Positions 5-7,575 of a stretch of DNA of 7,575 nucleotides are shown here, piece after piece. The position numbers were made by a program, and so were the translations under genes. The DNA lies in NCBI GenBank assembly GCA_049973735.1, contig JBMFJL010000028.1, positions 1-7,575 on the forward strand, read 5' to 3'. Below the pieces are notes generated by a model, which did no database searches, had not been told where the DNA came from, and saw only the letters and a list, made by a program, of their open reading frames with translations. Position 1 is the first letter of the stretch; every line of letters begins with the position of its first letter. Origin of the DNA: Nanopusillaceae archaeon. Its GTDB lineage: Archaea; Nanobdellota; Nanobdellia; Nanobdellales; Nanobdellaceae.

Positions 5-1060
5 TCATTTCATTTTCTGAGCAATTATTCCAACTTGTATTTCGCCCAGTTTATTTTTATCAAAATCATTTACTTTCTTTATTACCAAATATGCTGGATA
101 TTCAAATGATTTATCTGCTTCATTCCTTACTCCCAACTCTATTTTCATTATATTATTAATATTTAAGTTTTCTGGATTATAAATTATGTCATTTATTACA
201 CTACACAACAAATCATTTGTACATACTGAGTAGATCTTAAATGTTCTTGGGAAGAAAAACTGTAGAGTCTGTATATTGTGATATACATAATAATCTCCGC
301 TATTCTGTTTTTGTTCTTTATGATGACAATGATTATATGGATTTGACATTGCATTATAGTATTCGTAAAATGTCATACCAAGGTTCAATGCAACATCAAG
401 TGCAATACTTACACCTATACCAATTGGGCCTCCTATTTTTGATATTATCAAACCGCCTACATATGTTTCTATAGCACTTATGGTTGAATATACAATATTC
501 TCTTGCAAAATTGTTGGAATCTCATATACAAATGAACTTATAGCAAATCTATTTGTTTCTGCAGCATAATTTAAAATACTGGTAGCACTGCCTGCTACCA
601 AATTTATTGAAAAATCTGCTGCTGCTGCCTTTGCTAATGTACCCATTATTTTACTAATATCAGCAGTTTTTAGAAATGGTATTGCTGATAATATCCCACC
701 TATAACACCAAAAAATACGCTTTGGGATACTTGTTCCCATAGATTTTTCCTAATACAATATCCTATAGATGTATAAAAACTATCACTACTATAGGTTTGA
801 AATGAAAAGAAATACCTTGTTTGTGGAACTCCTATTCTAAATTCTAAAAGAGGAGCTGGTTGTGAAGTAACATATATTACTGATGTCATTTCACCAGGTT
901 CTGATGTTGAATAAGTTAAAAAACCTGCAGTTTCTAATAATAAATATTTATTATGTGGATGAAATAGTTGTCCTGCAATATAAGGTAAATAAAATCCAAT
1001 TAGTAATACTACTATAATAAATATTGATGCAATTACAACATCTAGCAAAGTCTCCTCCAT
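5..1060 (-). CDS. Hypothetical polytopic membrane protein, 351 aa; sixth (last) gene of the minus-strand surface/membrane operon
   Basis: Complete ORF (ATG 1058-1060, TGA 5-7). Its ATG overlaps the stop of the upstream gene by 1 nt (TAATG). The plus strand is T-rich here, as over all minus-strand genes in the window. N-terminus is MEETLLDVVIASIFIIVVLLIGFYLPYIAG. Further hydrophobic segments lie at aa ~114-130 (VFFGVIGGILSAIPFL) and aa ~199-229 (TYVGGLIISKIGGPIGIGVSIALDVALNLGM, Gly-rich). No protein family recognised by eye. Confidence 0.6.
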   Translation of the reverse strand: MEETLLDVVIASIFIIVVLLIGFYLPYIAGQLFHPHNKYLLLETAGFLTYSTSEPGEMTSVIYVTSQPAPLLEFRIGVPQTRYFFSFQTYSSDSFYTSIGYCIRKNLWEQVSQSVFFGVIGGILSAIPFLKTADISKIMGTLAKAAAADFSINLVAGSATSILNYAAETNRFAISSFVYEIPTILQENIVYSTISAIETYVGGLIISKIGGPIGIGVSIALDVALNLGMTFYEYYNAMSNPYNHCHHKEQKQNSGDYYVYHNIQTLQFFFPRTFKIYSVCTNDLLCSVINDIIYNPENLNINNIMKIELGVRNEADKSFEYPAYLVIKKVNDFDKNKLGEIQVGIIAQKMK

Positions 1061-1992
1061 TATGTTTGAGTACCTGGAGATATTGGATATAGAATATTAA
1101 CATATAAATTATCTCCATCTACTGTAAATTTTATTGTTTGTCCTGTAACAATTCTATTTAATACTCCTGTACATGAATAACCTATAGTACACTTTAATAT
1201 TAATAAATCTACTCCAAGTTCTGCACAGTATACATATGCATTCTGTCCAGTATTATATTGAAATACATTTGCACCTGGAAAGAATCCATATAAGTATGCA
1301 CAAGAACCCATCGGACATGAGATTACAGAACCACCATTTTTACATATAGCATTTTTATCTGTAGATGGATAATCGAAGGTACATCCATTTGTAGAATCAC
1401 ATGTTATATTAACCCCTGCAGTCACTCCAAGGGTAGGATTGGACAAATACACCATAGATTTAAATATGTTGGAAGTACTTGATATAATTACAGGAGTTCC
1501 AAAGTAATATGTCATTTTACAATCTCCTTCTCCCCTTGGGACACATAAATATCCGGAAGAAAATGGAGTACCATTTATATATATCTTTATCCTATTCTTA
1601 TTTAATTTTTGATGAAATACCCTTACACAAGTTGATAGATCTGGTCCTATATAGAAAATTCCTTTTTGCTGATCATAATATAATACTGATATTCCATATT
1701 GAACTTCTCCAGAAGTAAATCCCGTCTGACATCTATATAGATCTAGATATAAACCACTACCATTTGTTTCTATTATATATATAAAATCTGGATCGTATGA
1801 TGTTATTACAACTGTACCTTTTCCATTATCTATATTGCTAGCTAATTCTTTTGCAAATTTGATATACTTTGGTTGCTCACCGGTTGATATTCCAACTAAA
1901 CCTAAAATAAATACTGCTACAAGTATTACCAGTATTAAAACAACTATTATTTCAAATACTACTTTTAAAAATGATTCTGTTGCCCTTTTCAT
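1060..1992 (-). CDS. Cys-rich ectoprotein with class III (prepilin-like) N-terminus, 310 aa; fifth gene of operon
   Basis: Complete ORF. Its ATG (1990-1992) lies 1 nt after the stop of the 53-aa ORF. N-terminus is MKRA|TESFLKVVFEIIVVLILVILVAVFILGLVG, i.e. K-R then a small Ala before a long hydrophobic helix. The rest is Gly/Thr/Tyr/Val-rich (beta-type composition). All 12 Cys lie after the helix. There are 3 N-x-S/T sequons (NGS, NGT, NIT). No family recognised. Confidence 0.7.
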   Translation of the reverse strand: MKRATESFLKVVFEIIVVLILVILVAVFILGLVGISTGEQPKYIKFAKELASNIDNGKGTVVITSYDPDFIYIIETNGSGLYLDLYRCQTGFTSGEVQYGISVLYYDQQKGIFYIGPDLSTCVRVFHQKLNKNRIKIYINGTPFSSGYLCVPRGEGDCKMTYYFGTPVIISSTSNIFKSMVYLSNPTLGVTAGVNITCDSTNGCTFDYPSTDKNAICKNGGSVISCPMGSCAYLYGFFPGANVFQYNTGQNAYVYCAELGVDLLILKCTIGYSCTGVLNRIVTGQTIKFTVDGDNLYVNILYPISPGTQT

Positions 1993-1993
1993 A

Positions 1994-2155
1994 TTATAAG
2001 CCAGATTCGTTTACAACTTTATATCCAACGCTTGTCACATTCATCTTAATAGAATTGTTTACTATGTAATAATATATGAATACACCCAGTACTATTAATA
2101 CAATGGCAATAATTAAATATATTAGAAAGTTTGTTCCTTCTTCAGACCTCCTCAT
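1994..2155 (-). CDS. Single-helix mini-protein, 53 aa (pilin-like design); fourth gene of operon; NOT in the supplied ORF track
   Basis: Hand translation of the minus strand. The ATG at 2153-2155 overlaps the TGA (2152-2154) of the upstream ORF as ATGA; the stop TAA is at 1994-1996. Product: MRRSEEGTNFLIYLIIAIVLIVLGVFIYYYIVNNSIKMNVTSVGYKVVNESGL. It has the same design as its neighbours. It fills an otherwise unexplained gap of about 160 nt in a tightly packed operon. The tail of about 20 residues has three sequons (NNS, NVT, NES). The smallest ORF in the track is 60 aa, so this one was probably filtered out by size. Confidence 0.55.
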   Translation of the reverse strand: MRRSEEGTNFLIYLIIAIVLIVLGVFIYYYIVNNSIKMNVTSVGYKVVNESGL

Positions 2156-2346
2156 GGTGTACTTCCTTGAACATTTCCTTGTATTTCGCTTATTACATGA
2201 GTCCCATTTGTTTGATTCACACTATTAAATAAATTTGCTCCTCCTTTAAAGTAATATGCAGAAAATATTACCAATAATACCAAGGCAACAATAAACAATA
2301 TTATTAAAACTAAGAAATTACTTACCTGAGATCTTTTATGGTACAT
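2152..2346 (-). CDS. Single-helix mini-protein, 64 aa (pilin-like design); third gene of operon
   Basis: ORF track. Its ATG (2344-2346) overlaps the preceding ORF by 11 nt. N-terminus is MYHKRS|QVSNFLVLIILFIVALVLLVIFS. The C-terminal tail YYFKGGANLFNSVNQTNGTHVISEIQGNVQGSTP has NQT and NGT sequons. Confidence 0.6.
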   Translation of the reverse strand: MYHKRSQVSNFLVLIILFIVALVLLVIFSAYYFKGGANLFNSVNQTNGTHVISEIQGNVQGSTP

Positions 2347-2470
2347 TGTTTTGTCCTATCAATTTTAGGTTCCATCCAACCTTTGGCCCTATTACAATAA
2401 AAATAAGTACTAATGCCAATATGACAAATATTAATGCTAATATTATTTTTAATAGTTCACCAGTTTCCAT
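2336..2470 (-). CDS. Single-helix mini-protein, 44 aa if started at ATG 2468-2470 (72 aa if started at 2554); second gene of operon
   Basis: The track gives 2336-2554. That start overlaps the 402-aa gene by 50 nt and adds a 28-residue extension (MKVDHIQYLLHHSSKSKNLIIVKGFRYI) unlike any neighbour. The internal ATG gives METGELLKIILALIFVILALVLIFIVIGPKVGWNLKLIGQNNVP, which matches the neighbours' design. The start cannot be resolved from sequence alone. Confidence 0.5.
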   Translation of the reverse strand: METGELLKIILALIFVILALVLIFIVIGPKVGWNLKLIGQNNVP

Positions 2471-2504
2471 TATATATCTAAAGCCTTTGACTATTATAAG
2501 GTTT

Positions 2505-3713
2505 TTACTCTTGGAAGAATGATGTAACAAATATTGAATGTGATCCACCTTCATATGTATATACTATATAACCGATAATACCAGATTGTTTAGATTCTGG
2601 TACTATTATTGTCGAACATCCTGCATCTTTTTGCAATGAATATTCTTGAACATCTGTATCAGTTACTTTATATGATTGGGTATAAAGCATTTTATTAATT
2701 GGGTCTGGAACACTACCGCCATTGTTACAAGAACCAACATTATTTAAATCCAATAGATTACATACTAAAGAGTCATCTGCTACCTTTTCAATATCTGTTC
2801 TATACATTTGCTTAAATGGATTCTTATCATAATAATTCATCATGTATAACATACAAAATACTGAAGATAAAGAAATTTCTTTACCCCTATAATCTAAATA
2901 TGTTATAGAATAGTGAGTATGTACTCCTGCAATAGATACTGCCTGTCCCAAGGTTTCACCAAATGTATTATAAAGATACTTTGCAATTAGATATGTTAAA
3001 AATATTGTCTGACATTCTGATTTTGTGGGATTTGAAGAACATTTGTAAGTTTTCTCTATTTTATCTACATAAGTTTGATTTAAATCCCTATACATTCTAT
3101 TTATATCTCTTGGATCTATTGATGTTGTATTAGTTGCTACTATTCCTACCGGTACTAGATAATATAATAACGGACCTTGAATCATTTTTGCAACCTGATT
3201 TAATACTGATCCGAGTACATATAGTCCTGCGCTTGTCAATGCAAGTTGTTGGAAATATGGATTTCCTACTACATATGTTATACCCTCCTTTGCACCAGTT
3301 GAAAATTTGTATAAAGTAGATTCTTCTTCCACTTTACCCAAAATCTTTTCTGCATATTTTTTATATTGTTCTTTTGATATTCTACCAGCTTGTAATTCTT
3401 CTCTTGCAAATTCCAATGCCTCTATATATCCTGTGGATTTTGATCTCACTGCACTTATACCACCTATAACAACTGCAGCTAATAATATTCCTGCAGTTAT
3501 ATATAATCCTATTTGTCCTACACTTTGAGTAATTTGTGCAGGTTTAACTACTAAGAAATCTACAGTACCAGAAAGTGCATAAGCAAATTTTGCCTGTAAT
3601 CTTCCACTATATGATAAAGCTTTAAAGAAATTAAATAATATGATCAACAATACTATAAATATTATTATTATCAAGATTAATCTTATTACATCATCCGAAA
3701 CTGCCCTTTTCAT
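2505..3713 (-). CDS. Membrane protein with class III-like N-terminus, about 3 TM segments and a Cys-containing C-terminal ectodomain, 402 aa; first gene of operon
   Basis: Complete ORF. N-terminus is MKRA|VSDDVIRLILIIIIFIVLLIILFNFF. From memory, its K-R-A-V-S resembles the R-A-V-S-P start of archaeal pilin N-terminal domains (Pfam PF07790 type). A second clear TM lies at aa ~66-89 (GQIGLYITAGILLAAVVIGGISAV). A charged helical stretch follows at aa ~90-135 (EALEFAREELQAGRISKEQYKKYAEKILGKVEEE), then a hydrophobic region at aa ~155-193. The C-terminal domain of about 200 aa holds all 6 Cys and the NTT and NQT sequons. Confidence 0.7.
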   Translation of the reverse strand: MKRAVSDDVIRLILIIIIFIVLLIILFNFFKALSYSGRLQAKFAYALSGTVDFLVVKPAQITQSVGQIGLYITAGILLAAVVIGGISAVRSKSTGYIEALEFAREELQAGRISKEQYKKYAEKILGKVEEESTLYKFSTGAKEGITYVVGNPYFQQLALTSAGLYVLGSVLNQVAKMIQGPLLYYLVPVGIVATNTTSIDPRDINRMYRDLNQTYVDKIEKTYKCSSNPTKSECQTIFLTYLIAKYLYNTFGETLGQAVSIAGVHTHYSITYLDYRGKEISLSSVFCMLYMMNYYDKNPFKQMYRTDIEKVADDSLVCNLLDLNNVGSCNNGGSVPDPINKMLYTQSYKVTDTDVQEYSLQKDAGCSTIIVPESKQSGIIGYIVYTYEGGSHSIFVTSFFQE

Positions 3714-3776: not shown

Positions 3777-4043
3777 ATGCTAAAGGCGGTTAAAGATGTA
3801 TCTAGGAATGGAATGTTAATATATAGATGTAGGTTGTGTGGACATGTATTTATTAATGGTAAGCAATATGCAAAACATTTAGTTAAATCTCACTTAAGAA
3901 ATATGAGCATGAATAAAAGAAAAGCCAAAAAATTATACAAGAGATTATTATTGATAAAAATTAAACAAGAAAATAATTTAGAGTTAACAAATTATGAAAA
4001 GTATCTATTATTAAAGGCAAAATTGAATAATATAAAGCTATAG
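3777..4043 (+). CDS. Small classical C2H2 zinc-finger protein with basic helical tail, 88 aa (putative DNA-binding regulator)
   Basis: aa 16-39 (nt 3822-3893), YRCRLCGHVFINGKQYAKHLVKSH, fits the classical finger pattern Y-x-C-x2-C-x3-F-x5-Y-x2-H-x4-H exactly. The C-terminal half is Lys/Arg/Leu-rich (NKRKAKKLYKRLLLIKIKQENNLELTNYEKYLLLKAKL). The plus strand is A-rich over the ORF, as expected for a plus-strand gene here. An alternative start at Met13 is possible. Confidence 0.65.
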   Translation: MLKAVKDVSRNGMLIYRCRLCGHVFINGKQYAKHLVKSHLRNMSMNKRKAKKLYKRLLLIKIKQENNLELTNYEKYLLLKAKLNNIKL

Positions 4044-4595
4044 CTATATAGTAAATAGTTTTATTCTTTCTTTTCCAGATAATTCTTGTATTATTCTTTG
4101 ATATATTATATCCTCAACCTTTCCCGGTATTTTTGTCCTCTTTTCTATATCTTCAAATGATTCAAATGGTTTTTTATTCCTTTCTTCAATTATCTTTTGT
4201 ACTGTAACTTTTCCTATATTTGGAAGTAGTTCTAATGAATGTATTCTTATGTTTATTGGTCCTGCTTTATTGAAGAATTCGACATATTTTTTCTCATTTT
4301 TCTTTATTAAATCTTTTATTACTCTTTCCAAATTTGCTTTTGCTATTTCCGGTAAATCATCGACACCAACCCTTCTTAGTATTGATCTGACCTTTGGCCT
4401 CTGTCCCTCGCCGACATATAATTCTTCAAAATTTTCAACCGAAACACCTGGCTTTAACGTTAATATTAATAATGTAAAGTAATCTTTTCCAATAGCATAT
4501 ACTATTGGCTCTTTTATATTTTTAGTTGGATCTCCTCCTGGTAAATATGCTAAAACTATTGCATATTCTTCTTTTTTTGTTTCTCTTTTATCCAT
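4044..4595 (-). CDS. DUF655 / COG1491 family predicted nucleic-acid-binding protein (OB-fold N-terminus plus helix-hairpin-helix C-terminus), 183 aa
   Basis: The N-terminal EEYAIVLAYLPGG and the C-terminal HhH-like LELLPNIGKVTVQKIIEERNKKPFESFEDIEKRTKIPG are typical of this archaeal family. The ATG overlaps the rpoF stop by 8 nt (ATGGATAA), reproducing the conserved archaeal rpoF-COG1491 gene pair. Confidence 0.85.
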   Translation of the reverse strand: MDKRETKKEEYAIVLAYLPGGDPTKNIKEPIVYAIGKDYFTLLILTLKPGVSVENFEELYVGEGQRPKVRSILRRVGVDDLPEIAKANLERVIKDLIKKNEKKYVEFFNKAGPINIRIHSLELLPNIGKVTVQKIIEERNKKPFESFEDIEKRTKIPGKVEDIIYQRIIQELSGKERIKLFTI

Positions 4596-4905
4596 ATTTC
4601 TTTATTATATCCAATATTTTGTTCATTTCTTCCTTAGAAATTGTATTAGTATATAGTACAACTCTTAATTCTTCTTCATTTTTTGGCAACATTTCCAAGA
4701 TTTGTATTTTAACTTCATCAAGTAATTTTATATCTTTCATCTCCTCCAAAATCTTTTTTTCTTCTTCTTCATCCAATTTATATGTGGTTTCAAGGAATTT
4801 CAATACCCTTTCCTCTACACTTGACAATTTTCTTTTTTTCTTTATTTCTTTTAATAAATTTTTAACATATCCTGGAGTAACAATTTTCTTTTCGCCAATT
4901 TCCAT
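4588..4905 (-). CDS. rpoF: DNA-directed RNA polymerase subunit Rpo4 (RpoF, Rpb4 family), 105 aa
   Basis: A small Lys/Glu-rich helical protein. The C-terminal LPKNEEELRVVLYTNTISKEEMNKILDIIKKYG resembles the C-terminal helical domain of archaeal subunit F. It is adjacent to L21e and translationally coupled to DUF655, the conserved archaeal neighbourhood. Confidence 0.8.
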   Translation of the reverse strand: MEIGEKKIVTPGYVKNLLKEIKKKRKLSSVEERVLKFLETTYKLDEEEEKKILEEMKDIKLLDEVKIQILEMLPKNEEELRVVLYTNTISKEEMNKILDIIKKYG

Positions 4906-4958
4906 TTTATATATCTTTAAAATATTATTTAAAAATATATCACAAAGTATTATAGAAA
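4906..4958. promoter_or_regulatory. Bidirectional promoter region for rpoF (-) and rpl21e (+), possibly with one shared TATA element
   Basis: A 53-bp spacer. A single A/T run ATTATTTAAAAATAT (4924-4938) is centred about 27 nt from both ATGs (4905 on minus, 4959 on plus). It reads TTTAAAAATA on plus and TTTTTAAATAAT on minus. There is no SD-like element before either ATG, which is compatible with two leaderless transcripts. Confidence 0.4.
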
Positions 4959-5255
4959 ATGACTGCTAGGAAGGGTAAAGGACTTAGAAGAAAAAGTAGA
5001 GATAAATTATCTTTAGATATAAGAGATCATGGTAAAATAAAGATTAGAAAGATATTGGCGAAATATAATGAAGGAGATAGAGTTGTAATTAAAATATATT
5101 CATCATACCATGATGGAATGCCACATCCAAAATATCATGGATTCATTGGAGTAATTAAAGGGAAAAGAGGGGATTGTTATGAAGTACTAATAAATGACAA
5201 GGGAAAAGAAAAATTATTAATAGTACATCCCGTACATTTAGAAAAACTAGCTTAA
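4959..5255 (+). CDS. rpl21e: Large-subunit ribosomal protein L21e (eL21), 98 aa
   Basis: The basic N-terminus is MTARKGKGLRRKSRDKLS. The core GDRVVIKIYSSYHDGMPHPKYHGFIGVIKGKRG fits the L21e signature by eye (G-D-x-V-x10-G-x2-H-x2-Y-x-G-x-[T/I]-G). Size and neighbourhood are as in other archaea. Confidence 0.93.
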   Translation: MTARKGKGLRRKSRDKLSLDIRDHGKIKIRKILAKYNEGDRVVIKIYSSYHDGMPHPKYHGFIGVIKGKRGDCYEVLINDKGKEKLLIVHPVHLEKLA

Positions 5256-5771
5256 ATCTTTTGATAATATATCCTTTATCTTTTTAATATTATCATCGTC
5301 TAAAAATTTTATTTCCAATATATAACCTAAATTACTTTTTTCATTATATTTTATATATAATTTCATTGTTTTTGTTTTCATTATCCTATCAAATATACTC
5401 TTACTAATTTTTATATCTTTAATGTATTTTAAATCTATTTTGTATTTATTTCCATTGATTATTTCTATTAAATTATTCTTTTCAAATAATAAAACATAAT
5501 TTTTTGCATAGAAATAATATGAAGCTAAAAAATAAATTAGCAAAATTATGATTCCAACCGTTATATAATTTGTATAAATATCTACATATGTTCTTTGTAA
5601 AAATAATTGAATAAGCAGATATATTATAGTCAGAAGCATTATCTTAAATGATTTGTCTATTGAATACAAAAGTGGATTATATCTTATTAAAAATATTGCA
5701 TCTTCGATATTCTCGGAGTCAATGATTTTCTTTATAATATCTTTATCATAAATTAGTTCAATTCGCTGCAT
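5247..5771 (-). CDS. Membrane protein with two TM helices followed by a bacterial-PH-like (bPH_2 / DUF304, YdbS-like) domain, 174 aa
   Basis: Two hydrophobic helices: FKIMLLTIIYLLIQLFL and YITVGIIILLIYFLASYYFY. They are followed by NYVLLFEKNNLIEIINGNKYKIDLKYIKDIKISKSIFDRIMKTKTMKLYIKY. By eye this follows the bPH_2 pattern (a strand, G, then I-x-di-x-i-x-q/s-x3-R-x5-t-l-x-i). The 3' end overlaps rpl21e by 9 nt in convergent orientation. Confidence 0.5.
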   Translation of the reverse strand: MQRIELIYDKDIIKKIIDSENIEDAIFLIRYNPLLYSIDKSFKIMLLTIIYLLIQLFLQRTYVDIYTNYITVGIIILLIYFLASYYFYAKNYVLLFEKNNLIEIINGNKYKIDLKYIKDIKISKSIFDRIMKTKTMKLYIKYNEKSNLGYILEIKFLDDDNIKKIKDILSKDLS

Positions 5772-5806
5772 AAAATTTATATTTTACTAAAACTCTTTAT
5801 ATTTTT
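5772..5806. promoter_or_regulatory. Very short divergent promoter region (35 bp) with interdigitated TATA-like elements
   Basis: TTTATATTTT (5776-5785) is centred about 26 nt upstream of the plus-strand ATG at 5807. AAAAATATAAAG (complement of 5795-5806) is centred about 29 nt upstream of the minus-strand ATG at 5771. Each candidate TATA therefore lies nearer to the other gene's start. Confidence 0.3.
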
Positions 5807-5989
5807 ATGAAATCTGATGTTCCTATCCAAATATTGATATTTATGATAATAGGAATTGTAGTATTAGTAGTTGCAATATTTTTTGCAACAAATATATTTA
5901 AATCTGCAAGTACTTCAGCAAATACTTCCTTTAACTATATAAATAGCACATTTCATAATGTAACAAACGAAACATTACTTATAAAATGA
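5807..5989 (+). CDS. Single-helix mini-protein, 60 aa, with sequon-dense tail; first gene of plus-strand surface module
   Basis: ORF track. Product: MKSDVPIQILIFMIIGIVVLVVAIFFATNIFKSASTSANTSFNYINSTFHNVTNETLLIK. There are four N-x-S/T sequons (NTS, NST, NVT, NET) in the last 22 residues. The stop TGA (5987-5989) overlaps the next ATG (5986-5988) as ATGA. Confidence 0.6.
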   Translation: MKSDVPIQILIFMIIGIVVLVVAIFFATNIFKSASTSANTSFNYINSTFHNVTNETLLIK

Positions 5990-7575
5990 GTAAATCTAGA
6001 TCTTTCTTCTTCATACCTTTTATATACTATTTTGTTATTTTTATTATAATACTTGCCGGAGTTTTATTTATTTTATTATCAATATTTAAATACAAATATC
6101 CTTTATTTTCTAATGTAGAAACTTCACAAGCTTTATCAGAACAAAATCAAAATAATAACAATATCAATAGTGGACAGAAATCAAATATAACTGTAATTGT
6201 TGAAACCTTCGGACAATTTGATAACAAAGTATTTTACATACAAAAATTATCTGATAGTATTTATTATTATATAAATTCTACAGTAGTTTCTGCCCCTACT
6301 ACAAATCTTGTGGCTCCAGATCCTTCATTAATATATAATAATACTCCAAATATATATCAAATAACTGCTCTACAAGGTCTTACCTTAAATATAAGTATTG
6401 TGTTAACAAATAATACAGACAATTCTACTATAGTAACATTCAATGGAGGATATTGTAAAGTAATGAATAGCCAAAATTATGATGTTATAAATGTGCAAAA
6501 TAAAAATGAACCAATAATATTTTGTTTATTATGTCAAGATACAAAAGGATTTAGTACATATGTTTATTTAGATAAACCAGAAAAAATAAATGTAACCCCT
6601 GCAATTTCCCTACTATCCGGATTTGAAAACATAGATTATTATAAATATACTATAGAAGATCTTACAATCGTAAATAAAACTATAACAACCATAAATATAG
6701 GCGATTATGGCAAATTAGGATATGAATTCTTAGATTTTACTACAATACTATTTAAAATAGGACCTCCTTTTAATACTTATATAAAAGATGACGGTAGTAA
6801 TGTTTTATTTTTATATAAAGATTTGTATAGTGGCAATTACTATGCATTACCATCTTGGTATGCTGGATTTGAAAATAGCAACAATGGTAAAGTATATTAT
6901 TTCTTCGTAAACTTGCTTGAGTTTCCCTCAAAAATACGTAAAAGTTCTGTATCTAAGAATTGTCCATTTTTACCAATATATATTGCATTTGCAGATAGAG
7001 AATTATATAGCATTTTGAACGGTACCATTGGAGGAGATCCTTATGCAATAAATCCAAATAATCCTGGAAGCGTTGTTAAGTATGACAATGGTCCAAATGT
7101 ATTCCCTGTATACATAAATTTATACAATTATGGTTTTGTAGATTTCTTTAGTTATCATCTTTCTAACAACGTTTTATATTTTTACTATGATAATTCTGCC
7201 TATAAAGATGTATTACCAACATATAATCCATGGAATCTATATTATCCAAATCCAACGGGTGGTTTACATCCACAGGGACTTACTTTATTAAATGATAAAG
7301 ATCAAGGAGTATTTATTTTGGTAAATTCTACACTTTTGAATATATTTCCAAGATACATACTAGATAAAAATAGTTATAAATATGGAAATGGGTTGAATGT
7401 ATTTGTTTATTTCTCTGGAAGTCCTATTGTAAATCCTAGAGAAATAAGTTGTGGTTTTTTTAAATGTCCAGAGTATGCAGATGCTGTTAGTATTGCATAT
7501 CAAATTTCTGTCAACATAATAATCTTCTACAGTGTTTATGGTTATTCCATACTCTCTCAACTCATTTATATATTC
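5986..7575 (+). CDS. Large N-terminally anchored, sequon-rich surface protein, at least 530 aa, 3'-truncated by the window edge; NOT in the supplied ORF track
   Basis: I checked the frame codon by codon. Frame 1 (positions congruent to 1 mod 3) is open from ATG 5986 to 7575, exactly 530 codons with no stop. The N-terminus is MSKSRSFFFIPFIYYFVIFIIILAGVLFILLSIF, followed by an Asn/Gln-rich linker (SEQNQNNNNINSGQ). The ectodomain is Tyr/Asn/Gly-rich with at least 10 N-x-S/T sequons and 6 Cys. The plus strand is A-rich throughout. The track probably lists only stop-delimited ORFs. The 66-aa minus ORF at 7360-7560 is antisense to this gene. Confidence 0.8.
   Translation, partial: MSKSRSFFFIPFIYYFVIFIIILAGVLFILLSIFKYKYPLFSNVETSQALSEQNQNNNNINSGQKSNITVIVETFGQFDNKVFYIQKLSDSIYYYINSTVVSAPTTNLVAPDPSLIYNNTPNIYQITALQGLTLNISIVLTNNTDNSTIVTFNGGYCKVMNSQNYDVINVQNKNEPIIFCLLCQDTKGFSTYVYLDKPEKINVTPAISLLSGFENIDYYKYTIEDLTIVNKTITTINIGDYGKLGYEFLDFTTILFKIGPPFNTYIKDDGSNVLFLYKDLYSGNYYALPSWYAGFENSNNGKVYYFFVNLLEFPSKIRKSSVSKNCPFLPIYIAFADRELYSILNGTIGGDPYAINPNNPGSVVKYDNGPNVFPVYINLYNYGFVDFFSYHLSNNVLYFYYDNSAYKDVLPTYNPWNLYYPNPTGGLHPQGLTLLNDKDQGVFILVNSTLLNIFPRYILDKNSYKYGNGLNVFVYFSGSPIVNPREISCGFFKCPEYADAVSIAYQISVNIIIFYSVYGYSILSQLIYIF

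Follow-up and report, generated by a model that had tools for sequence, protein, structure and literature searches.

What is encoded at the right-hand end of a small nanoarchaeal contig, where a very short gene runs directly into a very long one? The DNA in question is a stretch of 7,575 nucleotides (nt) from a Nanopusillaceae archaeon (assembly GCA_049973735.1, contig JBMFJL010000028.1, forward strand), referred to below as the window, in which the gene for a 60-amino-acid (aa) protein, here called the mini, is joined by an ATGA overlap to a much larger open reading frame (ORF), still open at the edge of the sequence. An earlier note, compiled from the sequence alone, had interpreted the two as a heavily N-glycosylated surface protein, such as an adhesin, delivered or anchored together with a dedicated mini-subunit. 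The analysis reported here makes it moderately probable that the two genes form a cell-surface module restricted to thermoacidophilic Nanobdellales (Nanopusillaceae/Nanobdellaceae). The pair represents an uncharacterised, lineage-restricted family of a general kind which is known, that of N-glycosylated, membrane-anchored archaeal surface proteins, maybe related to pilins; its new features are the conserved coupling to a mini-subunit, a convergent partner gene and the capture by host genomes. The elements of the pair are given below, each with the basis of its assignment.

5772-5806, plus strand: intergenic region of 35 nt, between the divergent gene for a 174-aa protein and the mini gene (direct reading).

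5807-5989, plus strand: mini gene, 60 aa (ORF list, orthologs).

5986-5989, plus strand: ATGA overlap, combining the mini stop with the start of the large gene (sequence, related loci).

5986-7575, plus strand: gene for the large ectoprotein, first 530 codons, truncated by the window edge (aligned to homologs).

6004-6096, plus strand: predicted N-terminal membrane helix, residues ~7-37 (hydropathy windows up to 3.28; AlphaFold).

6097-6177, plus strand: Asn/Gln-rich low-complexity stalk, residues 38-64 (sequence; AlphaFold).

6178-7020, plus strand: predicted immunoglobulin (Ig)-like beta-sandwich ectodomains, residues 65-345 (AlphaFold block with a predicted local distance difference test score, pLDDT, mostly of 70-92).

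7021-7575, plus strand: central region, residues 346-530, pLDDT <50, where the variable C-terminal half starts (alignment, AlphaFold).

The large frame is a real gene. Translation confirmed the reading of the earlier note, which had described an ORF of at least 530 codons, open to the edge and ATGA-coupled to the 60-aa ORF: 5986-7575 on the plus strand contains 530 codons and zero stops, the other five frames across the same interval contain 34 to 58, and the chance of such a stop-free run at this base composition is about 9e-21. A chance open frame or a decaying gene could be suspected, as the ORF is cut by the window end and its final ~25 residues diverge from the homologs, but this explanation is effectively refuted by the length of the run in DNA of ~26% G+C, by an alignment extending lengthwise over more than 80 homologous loci, and by an independent assembly. 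In the latter (GCA_049699895.1), the 1.5-kb contig JBNAWI010000114.1 is 98.5% identical to window positions 4985-6503 and yields identical gene calls. The statement that the largest gene of the window would be overlooked describes a trivial property of the ORF list, which drops ORFs running off the window ends and omitted the gene solely on this account. The contig could not be extended to the full ORF, as had been proposed: look-ups based on exact proteins retrieved the 1.5-kb sister-strain contig as their sole find, an exact 31-mer from the window end was unmatched in metagenome contigs, and a protein-based metagenome scan detected no relative above 49% identity, so that the 3' third of the gene was not recovered.

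The full-length homologs measure 778-879 aa, and the window holds about the first 65% of the protein. Thirty-four homologs were collected, all from Nanopusillaceae, Nanobdella, YN1 and hot-spring metagenomes, with the addition of two fragments located in host-type genomes. Among them are MJ1_0040 of Nanobdella aerobiophila, YN1_3820 of 'Ca. Nanofervidus parviconus' YN1, Nst1_036 of 'Ca. Nanobsidianus stetteri' and two copies in 'Ca. Nanopusillus acidilobi'; the window protein is 35-45% identical to its homologs over residues 9-518. A profile built on 35 members and compared with 1.84 billion representative proteins gave only 119 hits, nearly all of them fragments of the same family, and one a distant 730-aa relative on another nanoarchaeal contig. 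As the homologs are confined to nanoarchaeal and hot-spring sources, apart from the two host-type fragments, the window, with ~27% G+C, was assigned from their distribution to thermoacidophilic Nanobdellales (Nanoarchaeota). Nanobdellales of this type are obligate ectosymbionts of Sulfolobales and related archaea. A virus or plasmid origin of the large gene was rejected, since no homolog of the large protein was present among phage records, plasmid records and IMG/VR contigs.

The orthologs in N. aerobiophila, YN1, N. stetteri and N. acidilobi share with the window protein the N-terminal helix, the stalk, the Cys residues and the sequons (N-glycosylation sites), and their loci share the upstream mini with its ATGA overlap and a flank composed of the DUF655, RpoF and L21e genes. 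The window copy is however the most divergent of the set, being at most 45% identical to any full-length member, and its neighbourhood, unlike theirs, is inverted relative to a pilin-like operon described below. All family orthologs are annotated only as hypothetical proteins, and MJ1_0040, YN1_3820 and Nst1_036 are mentioned nowhere in the literature searched. When every window protein, each of the 35 family members and their sub-regions were scanned with Pfam and NCBIfam, the large protein received nothing above noise, and a PDB sequence profile search returned for it only noise with E > 0.1; the clear match to a well-characterised family which, according to the earlier note, would have argued against its proposal is thus lacking in Pfam, NCBIfam and PDB sequences. 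A kinship with DUF2341/LamG, suggested by motif patterns and by a C-terminus containing ...YLDWV..., was not verified by profiles: scanned against Pfam up to E = 10, the central and C-terminal pieces matched neither DUF2341 nor Laminin_G_3.

The anatomy of the large protein is common to the family. The protein starts with MSKSRS, followed by ~28 hydrophobic residues, and the part contained in the window includes 10 sequons and 6 Cys; the description in the note (at least 25 hydrophobic residues after MSKSRS, an Asn/Gln stalk, at least 10 sequons and 6 Cys) is therefore correct in its counts. AlphaFold models residues 9-37 as a helix, within a block with a pLDDT of ~87-88, and gives the stalk values below 50 at residues 37-61, likewise found at residues 30-57 of the YN1 homolog. 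The mean pLDDT is 62 for the window protein and 58 for full-length YN1_3820, and the layout of helix, stalk and beta-sandwich is common to both models. The beta-sandwich region, residues 65-345, carries five sequons conserved throughout the family (N67, N142, N202, N230 and N345), each kept in 28-34 of 30-34 homologs (at least 93%), and Cys157, 180, 183 and 326, kept in all of them. The sharpest family motifs, PSWYAG, LNGT.GG.P (LNGTIGGDP in the window) and YDNG.NVFP.Y.N.Y (YDNGPNVFP.Y.N.Y in the window), fall within residues ~285-380, at or just past the C-terminal end of the well-modelled region. The full-length homologs contain no C-terminal membrane segment. Foldseek searches returned only generic tandem Ig-like matches, to antibody light chains, FimC-type chaperones and Gram-positive pilins, with E >= 1e-3, and weak matches to legume lectins, with a target-normalised TM-score of ~0.35 and E >0.01.

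Taken together, the membrane helix, the disordered stalk, the beta-sandwich ectodomain and the conserved sequons and Cys form, as far as the models go, the signature of an extracellular, N-terminally anchored glycoprotein. A membrane anchor combined with conserved, predicted extracellular sequons was found both in the large protein and in the minis. The view that this is a heavily N-glycosylated surface protein is in keeping with the anatomy and with the conserved sequons and Cys, and needs correction in its quantitative part: in a protein composed of ~11% Asn, 10 sequons are not in excess over composition (7.4 +/- 2.4 in shuffles, p = 0.19). Experiments have shown that surface proteins of Nanobdellales are N-glycosylated (10.64898/2026.06.04.730037; PMC4935971), and modification of the conserved sites would be expected here. 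Glycoproteomics of the related strain YN4 named other proteins, together with two hypothetical glycoproteins, YN4_326 and YN4_730, either of which might belong to the large family (10.64898/2026.06.04.730037).

In the mini a short polar N-terminus, MKSDVP, is followed by a hydrophobic helix, residues ~7-31, and by an Asn/Ser-rich tail, whose final 22 residues contain all its sequons (N39, N46, N51 and N54). The earlier note had counted these four correctly, and here they do exceed the number found in composition shuffles (1.2 +/- 0.95, p ~0.013). The positions recur across orthologs, three or four of them being kept in every mini, and the tail fits the consensus GGN.ASNQS.NFINNSFNN[IV]TNQS. 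Orthologs of 60-62 aa occupy the same position at 10 reference and 17 metagenome loci; dN/dS, the ratio of non-synonymous to synonymous substitution rates, is 0.16-0.47 for the mini. The window and the sister strain differ in the mini gene by 2 synonymous and 0 non-synonymous changes, and GCA_049699895.1 thus encodes an identical protein. The mini is under purifying selection. As a candidate archaeal TATA box for a leaderless transcript, the sequence TTTATATTTT could be proposed, ~22-31 nt upstream of the mini ATG, but its evidential value is low, since the intergenic region 5772-5806 is ~80% A+T.

An upstream ORF of this size could serve for translational coupling or regulation only, producing a peptide which plays no role with the large protein. 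Overlaps of 4 nt are frequent in this compact genome, and the second paralog and a distant homolog, both described below, manage without an adjacent mini. The peptide itself is however conserved across genera, tail sequons included, its dN/dS is well below 1, and it belongs to a paralogous family of minis, all of which makes such an explanation improbable. The conservation of the sequence and of the tail sequons, the dN/dS values and the exclusively synonymous changes in the sister strain indicate that the mini is a protein-coding gene and not merely a coupling device.

Four-nt overlaps are also common within the window, as between the genes for the 64- and 53-aa proteins, and what gives the ATGA overlap its weight is solely its conservation in other genomes. 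A mini with the same 4-nt overlap was found at 10 of the 11 reference loci that include the 5' end of the large gene (from YN1, N. aerobiophila, two N. stetteri, N. acidilobi and Nanopusillus metagenome-assembled genomes, MAGs) and at 17 of 27 evaluable metagenome loci, and the coupling spans four or more genera; the two genes clearly do co-occur in other genomes, a point on which the note had staked its proposal. The loci devoid of a mini, including the 10 from metagenomes, resemble a second paralog class, known from N. acidilobi. In this genome (CP010514.1), a second locus (L010 9959-13404) contains a duplicate of the large gene and of the convergent gene for a ~300-aa protein which follows it, and no mini; the two copies of the large gene are separated by a dS of 0.15. 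The duplicated unit, large gene plus convergent ~300-aa gene, is the same that was captured by host genomes. The distant homolog, P0093, has no adjacent mini either, and an MCM gene follows it. P0093 is annotated as a protein of 705 aa; extension to an upstream ATG gives 730 aa, with a proper N-terminal helix (MKRSLLSEILEIIRGIIIFLIIL...; L019 7926-10118). The association between mini and large gene is therefore strong, but not obligatory in cis.

The large gene evolves fast. Within Nanopusillus/Nanobsidianus its dN is 0.13-0.25 and its dN/dS 0.44-0.61, against a dN of 0-0.06 and a dN/dS of 0-0.25 for DUF655, L21e and RpoF in the same genome pairs; amino-acid change is ~4-6 times faster than in these neighbours. 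The most conserved parts are the membrane helix, which ranks first within Nanopusillus, and residues ~234-376, and the C-terminal half holds most of the variable patches, which are rich in indels. Five independent assemblies (the window, the sister contig and three others) break inside the large gene, and the search of representative proteins yielded mostly short C-terminal fragments of the family; both observations suggest a heterogeneity at the level of populations or strains, which defeats assembly. In Nanoarchaeota, 'hypothetical external' proteins with a single N-terminal membrane helix were reported as the class with the highest density of non-synonymous single-nucleotide polymorphisms (Jarett et al. 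2018, PMC6142677). The large protein fits this description for both its helix and its variation, but the class is an operational category, not a family.

The nature of the N-terminal helix is the main alternative to be weighed. Instead of staying in the membrane as an uncleaved anchor, it could be a class III signal, cut by a prepilin peptidase. In that case the 60-, 53- and 64-aa proteins would be tiny glycosylated pilins and the large protein a giant minor pilin or tip adhesin of the same filament, assembled by type IV pilus machinery encoded elsewhere in the genome, and the filament could be the intercellular one of 6.6-8.2 nm seen in the attachment organelle. Canonical starts ([KR][GAS] followed by a hydrophobic stretch) do occur nearby: HKG/QISTF in the 64-aa family (the slash marks the candidate cleavage site), KKG/VSDS, RKKG/QES and KRA/VSDD in the 402-aa family, and RKRG/SLAP in a 487-aa family. 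The large protein has MRG/K, MKTQFG/S or MKNQLG/K in three lineages. The 64-aa family is moreover paralogous to the 60-aa mini, a pair of type IV pilus systems and an archaellum have been reported in Nanoarchaeota (PMC6142677), and filaments of unknown composition are present at the site of host contact (PMC11420986).

The likeness to archaeal type IV pilins and other class III proteins, such as EpdE and the Aap and Ups proteins of Sulfolobus, extends to the short charged N-terminus with ~22-28 hydrophobic residues, to the tiny glycosylated subunits, to the several paralogs per operon and to the KG/Q-type sites of some neighbours. In Methanococcus maripaludis the major pilin, EpdE, is an N-glycoprotein of comparably small size. 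The minor pilins CofB and TcpB of bacterial type IVb systems are large proteins with beta-rich, lectin-like ends, and together with their small major pilin they offer an analogy in the N-terminal helix, the beta-rich domains, the lectin-like end and the small adjacent subunit; they differ in coming from another domain of life, and in showing neither a sequence match nor a specific fold match.

Several results speak against the pilin reading. None of the mini, the large protein and eight operon N-termini matched the archaeal pilin and class III hidden Markov models (HMMs) of Pfam and NCBIfam (Pilin_N PF07790, Class_IIIsignal PF04021 and TIGR02537), even at E up to 10, these profiles being short and insensitive. 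Compared by a motif criterion (K/R at -2 or -3, G/A, or S, at -1, then at least 20 hydrophobic residues), the N-termini gave a mixed picture: the neighbours of the 64-, 402- and 487-aa families are canonical, the window large protein reads KSRS/FFF and its counterparts in other lineages RG/K, FG/S and LG/K, and the minis, with MKS/D, MKND/I and MKNS/I, are non-canonical, having N, D or S directly before the hydrophobic stretch and K/R at the third position back (MKND/ISID, MKSD/VPIQ). In both AlphaFold models of the large protein a disordered stalk of ~25 residues stands between the helix and the globular part, in contrast to the pilin fold, where the helix packs on a beta domain, and the window and the 20-kb neighbourhoods contain no assembly ATPase, platform protein or peptidase. 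Helices of 25-29 residues, we would argue, need no special explanation in membranes made of host tetraether lipids. The lack of HMM matches, the non-canonical mini site, the disordered stalk and the lack of assembly genes nearby lead us to favour, with moderate confidence, a permanent signal anchor for the large protein; the pilin-type subunit is a possible alternative, which we regard as unlikely.

A large protein, N-glycosylated and rich in Ig-like beta-sandwiches, also calls to mind the surface layer (S-layer), in which it might act as the lattice or stalk subunit, or as an anchoring component, the mini being the membrane tether. These general features are shared with known archaeal S-layer proteins, such as SlaA/SlaB of Sulfolobales, and with the genes proposed for this role in Nanobdella, MJ1_0160 and MJ1_0707. 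The latter, like their counterparts in YN1, YN1_5000 and YN1_2560, are however different genes (PMC11420986; 10.1101/2023.10.27.564410). Compared with SlaA/SlaB and MJ1_0160/MJ1_0707, the large protein shows no sequence similarity, and is anchored at its N-terminus with no C-terminal membrane segment; its gene evolves fast, with many indels, and is duplicated in N. acidilobi. Neither homology nor the combination of a C-terminal anchor with lattice domains was thus found, and an S-layer role is highly improbable.

The genes surrounding the pair are the following; a search for Rfam families and tRNAs detected none in the window.

3777-5771, both strands: syntenic block upstream of the pair, composed of genes for an 88-aa protein (plus), DUF655 (minus), an Rpb4/RpoF-like protein (minus), ribosomal protein L21e (plus) and a 174-aa membrane protein (minus); the gene order is the same in 10 related loci.

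5-3713, minus strand: operon of N-terminal-helix proteins of 402, 44 (listed as 72), 64, 53, 310 and 351 aa (ORF list, orthologs).

DUF655 was identified by a direct Pfam hit, Rpb4 and L21e via Pfam hits on orthologous genes, and the 174-aa membrane protein has a sub-threshold match to bPH_2. In the reference genomes the order is 88-aa gene, DUF655, RpoF, L21e, 174-181-aa membrane protein, mini, large gene and convergent ~300-aa gene, after which, a few kb downstream and on the same strand, comes an operon orthologous to the minus-strand operon of the window, as seen in YN1, MJ1, Nst1, N. acidilobi and Nanopusillus CON-C. In these genomes the operon extends by three more genes after the 351-aa one. 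In the window the operon lies on the opposite side of the block and is inverted, a layout that one inversion, from the 88-aa gene through the large gene, would explain. The two loci are persistent neighbours.

The earlier note had seen in the 53- plus 310-aa genes of the operon and in the 60-aa plus large pair two variations on one design. Of this idea, the part concerning the minis and the N-terminal-helix layout holds. In the profile-profile comparison that had been suggested, hhalign gave a probability of 96.5% for the 60- against the 53-aa family, 87% for the 64- against the 53-aa and 74% for the 64- against the 60-aa; since the membrane helix contributes much of the signal, these values are good evidence, though short of conclusive, for paralogy between the 60-aa mini and its 53- and 64-aa counterparts. 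The other half of the idea fails: the same comparison of the 310-aa and large proteins gave a probability of 3%, by which the 310-aa protein was rejected as a relative, and the 53-aa mini, standing in a row of three or four minis in the operon, is not a dedicated partner of the 310-aa protein.

Further observations concern single genes of this region. The start of the listed 72-aa ORF (2336-2554, minus strand) is almost certainly the internal ATG at 2468-2470, which gives a 44-aa protein (METGELLKIILAL...), because orthologs are 43-48 aa long and a start at the listed position would create a 50-nt overlap with the 402-aa gene; the protein starts like a mature pilin, without a basic leader, and has a sub-threshold match to Pfam DUF7554 (23 bits, with a cut-off of 25). 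A membrane gene of the VKOR family (disulfide-forming) is inserted between the 174-181-aa gene and the mini in YN1 (L003 9319-9780) and in the Nanopusillaceae MAG KM4331-08 (L002 9298-9783), and is absent from Nanobdella and from the window, where the gap is of 35 nt; its position beside Cys-bearing ectoproteins may be meaningful. The L21e (plus) and 174-aa (minus) genes overlap convergently by 9 nt, 5247-5255, and in the sister strain a single substitution in the overlap changes both the L21e stop, from TAA to TGA, and a Leu of the 174-aa protein, to Ser. In YN1, upstream of DUF655 (L003 1-7171), four tandem AAA_14/DUF4143 ATPase genes and a split HEPN gene form a strain-specific island beside the conserved block, at the site occupied by Nop56, fibrillarin and S10 in other genomes.

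Family sequences were also found in two host-type genomes. YN1 lives on Sulfurisphaera ohwakuensis YN1HA, and at ~1,658,176-1,660,500 of this host's chromosome (AP031374.1) lie the 3' ~60% of YN1_3820 and the greater part of the convergent gene, at a DNA identity to YN1 of 79-93% and with both ORFs intact (497 and 267 aa). The same two pieces form an island of ~2.4 kb, with 28-38% GC, in contig JBMFJH010000016.1 of a 60%-GC Thermoprotei MAG (L015 ~800-3100), whose sample series also yielded a Nanopusillaceae MAG; there, the N-terminus and membrane helix of the convergent protein are encoded in high-GC DNA. The two insertions are independent, as each is closest to a different nanoarchaeal lineage, and their starting points in the large protein, window residues ~288 and 322, are no more than ~35 residues apart. 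Between the YN1HA copy and YN1, dN/dS is 0.46-0.50, with a mosaic dS, a value which, with ~0.5-0.6 being usual in the family, does not decide on a function in the host. The search for transfers covered the large-protein family only. The YN1 paper makes no mention of horizontal transfer (PMC11420986), and four unannotated proteins shared by Thermocladium and clade 2 Nanoarchaeota have been described (Jarett et al., PMC6142677).

In the working model of the two-gene surface module, the mini would be a single-pass membrane protein with its N-terminus inside and an outside C-terminal tail bearing three or four N-glycans. The large protein, of ~800 aa and translationally coupled to it, would be held in the membrane by its uncleaved N-terminal helix, and would display on the disordered Asn/Gln-rich stalk an ectodomain made of tandem Ig-like beta-sandwiches, a strongly conserved centre and a C-terminal half which is beta-rich and variable. 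The helices of the two proteins may associate in the membrane, probably with the convergent ~300-aa single-pass protein of the relatives. In N. aerobiophila the S-layer has a thickness of 15-20 nm (10.1101/2023.10.27.564410); stalk and several beta-sandwich domains would project to or through a layer of such thickness, and the fast-evolving distal part would contact the environment, most plausibly the surface of the host cell. The pair is thus a reasonable but unproven candidate for host contact; the adhesin role and the joint delivery with the mini-subunit put forward in the earlier note are inferences.

Some of the results weigh against this model. The central region and the C-terminal half, although beta-rich, are poorly modelled (pLDDT <50), and as the fold matches are only to generic beta-sandwiches, no binding function is readable from the structure. 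The large family is absent from the published lists of surface proteins of Nanobdella and YN1 (PMC11420986; 10.1101/2023.10.27.564410). The mini is missing beside the second paralog class and one distant homolog, hence a strict 1:1 complex is not required. A dN/dS of ~0.5 could reflect relaxed constraint, and not a diversification driven by the host. Finally, several N-termini in the neighbourhood resemble class III (prepilin) signals, so that the helix might be processed.

A wider conjecture, to which we assign a low probability, is that the mini, the large protein, the convergent ~300-aa protein and the pilin-like operon, of at least 9 proteins, might all be part of the apparatus by which Nanobdellales attach to their hosts, for example of a portal or intercellular filament. 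The variable C-terminal half would then determine host specificity, and the copies in YN1HA and in the 60%-GC Thermoprotei would perhaps act as a decoy or exclusion factor. Cryo-tomography has revealed cones, portals and filaments in YN1, YN4 and Nanobdella, with no component identified (PMC11420986).

For the recognition, attachment and tapping of hosts by nanoarchaea, the module described here provides a candidate that is lineage-specific, conserved and fast-evolving, and whose carriers include three systems available in culture (N. aerobiophila MJ1, YN1 and N. acidilobi). Should it prove to be an ordinary envelope protein, a useful annotation would still be gained for a family labelled as 'hypothetical'. 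The fragments found in host genomes, unless due to sampling, would record a rare case of gene flow from symbiont to host, centred on a surface protein.

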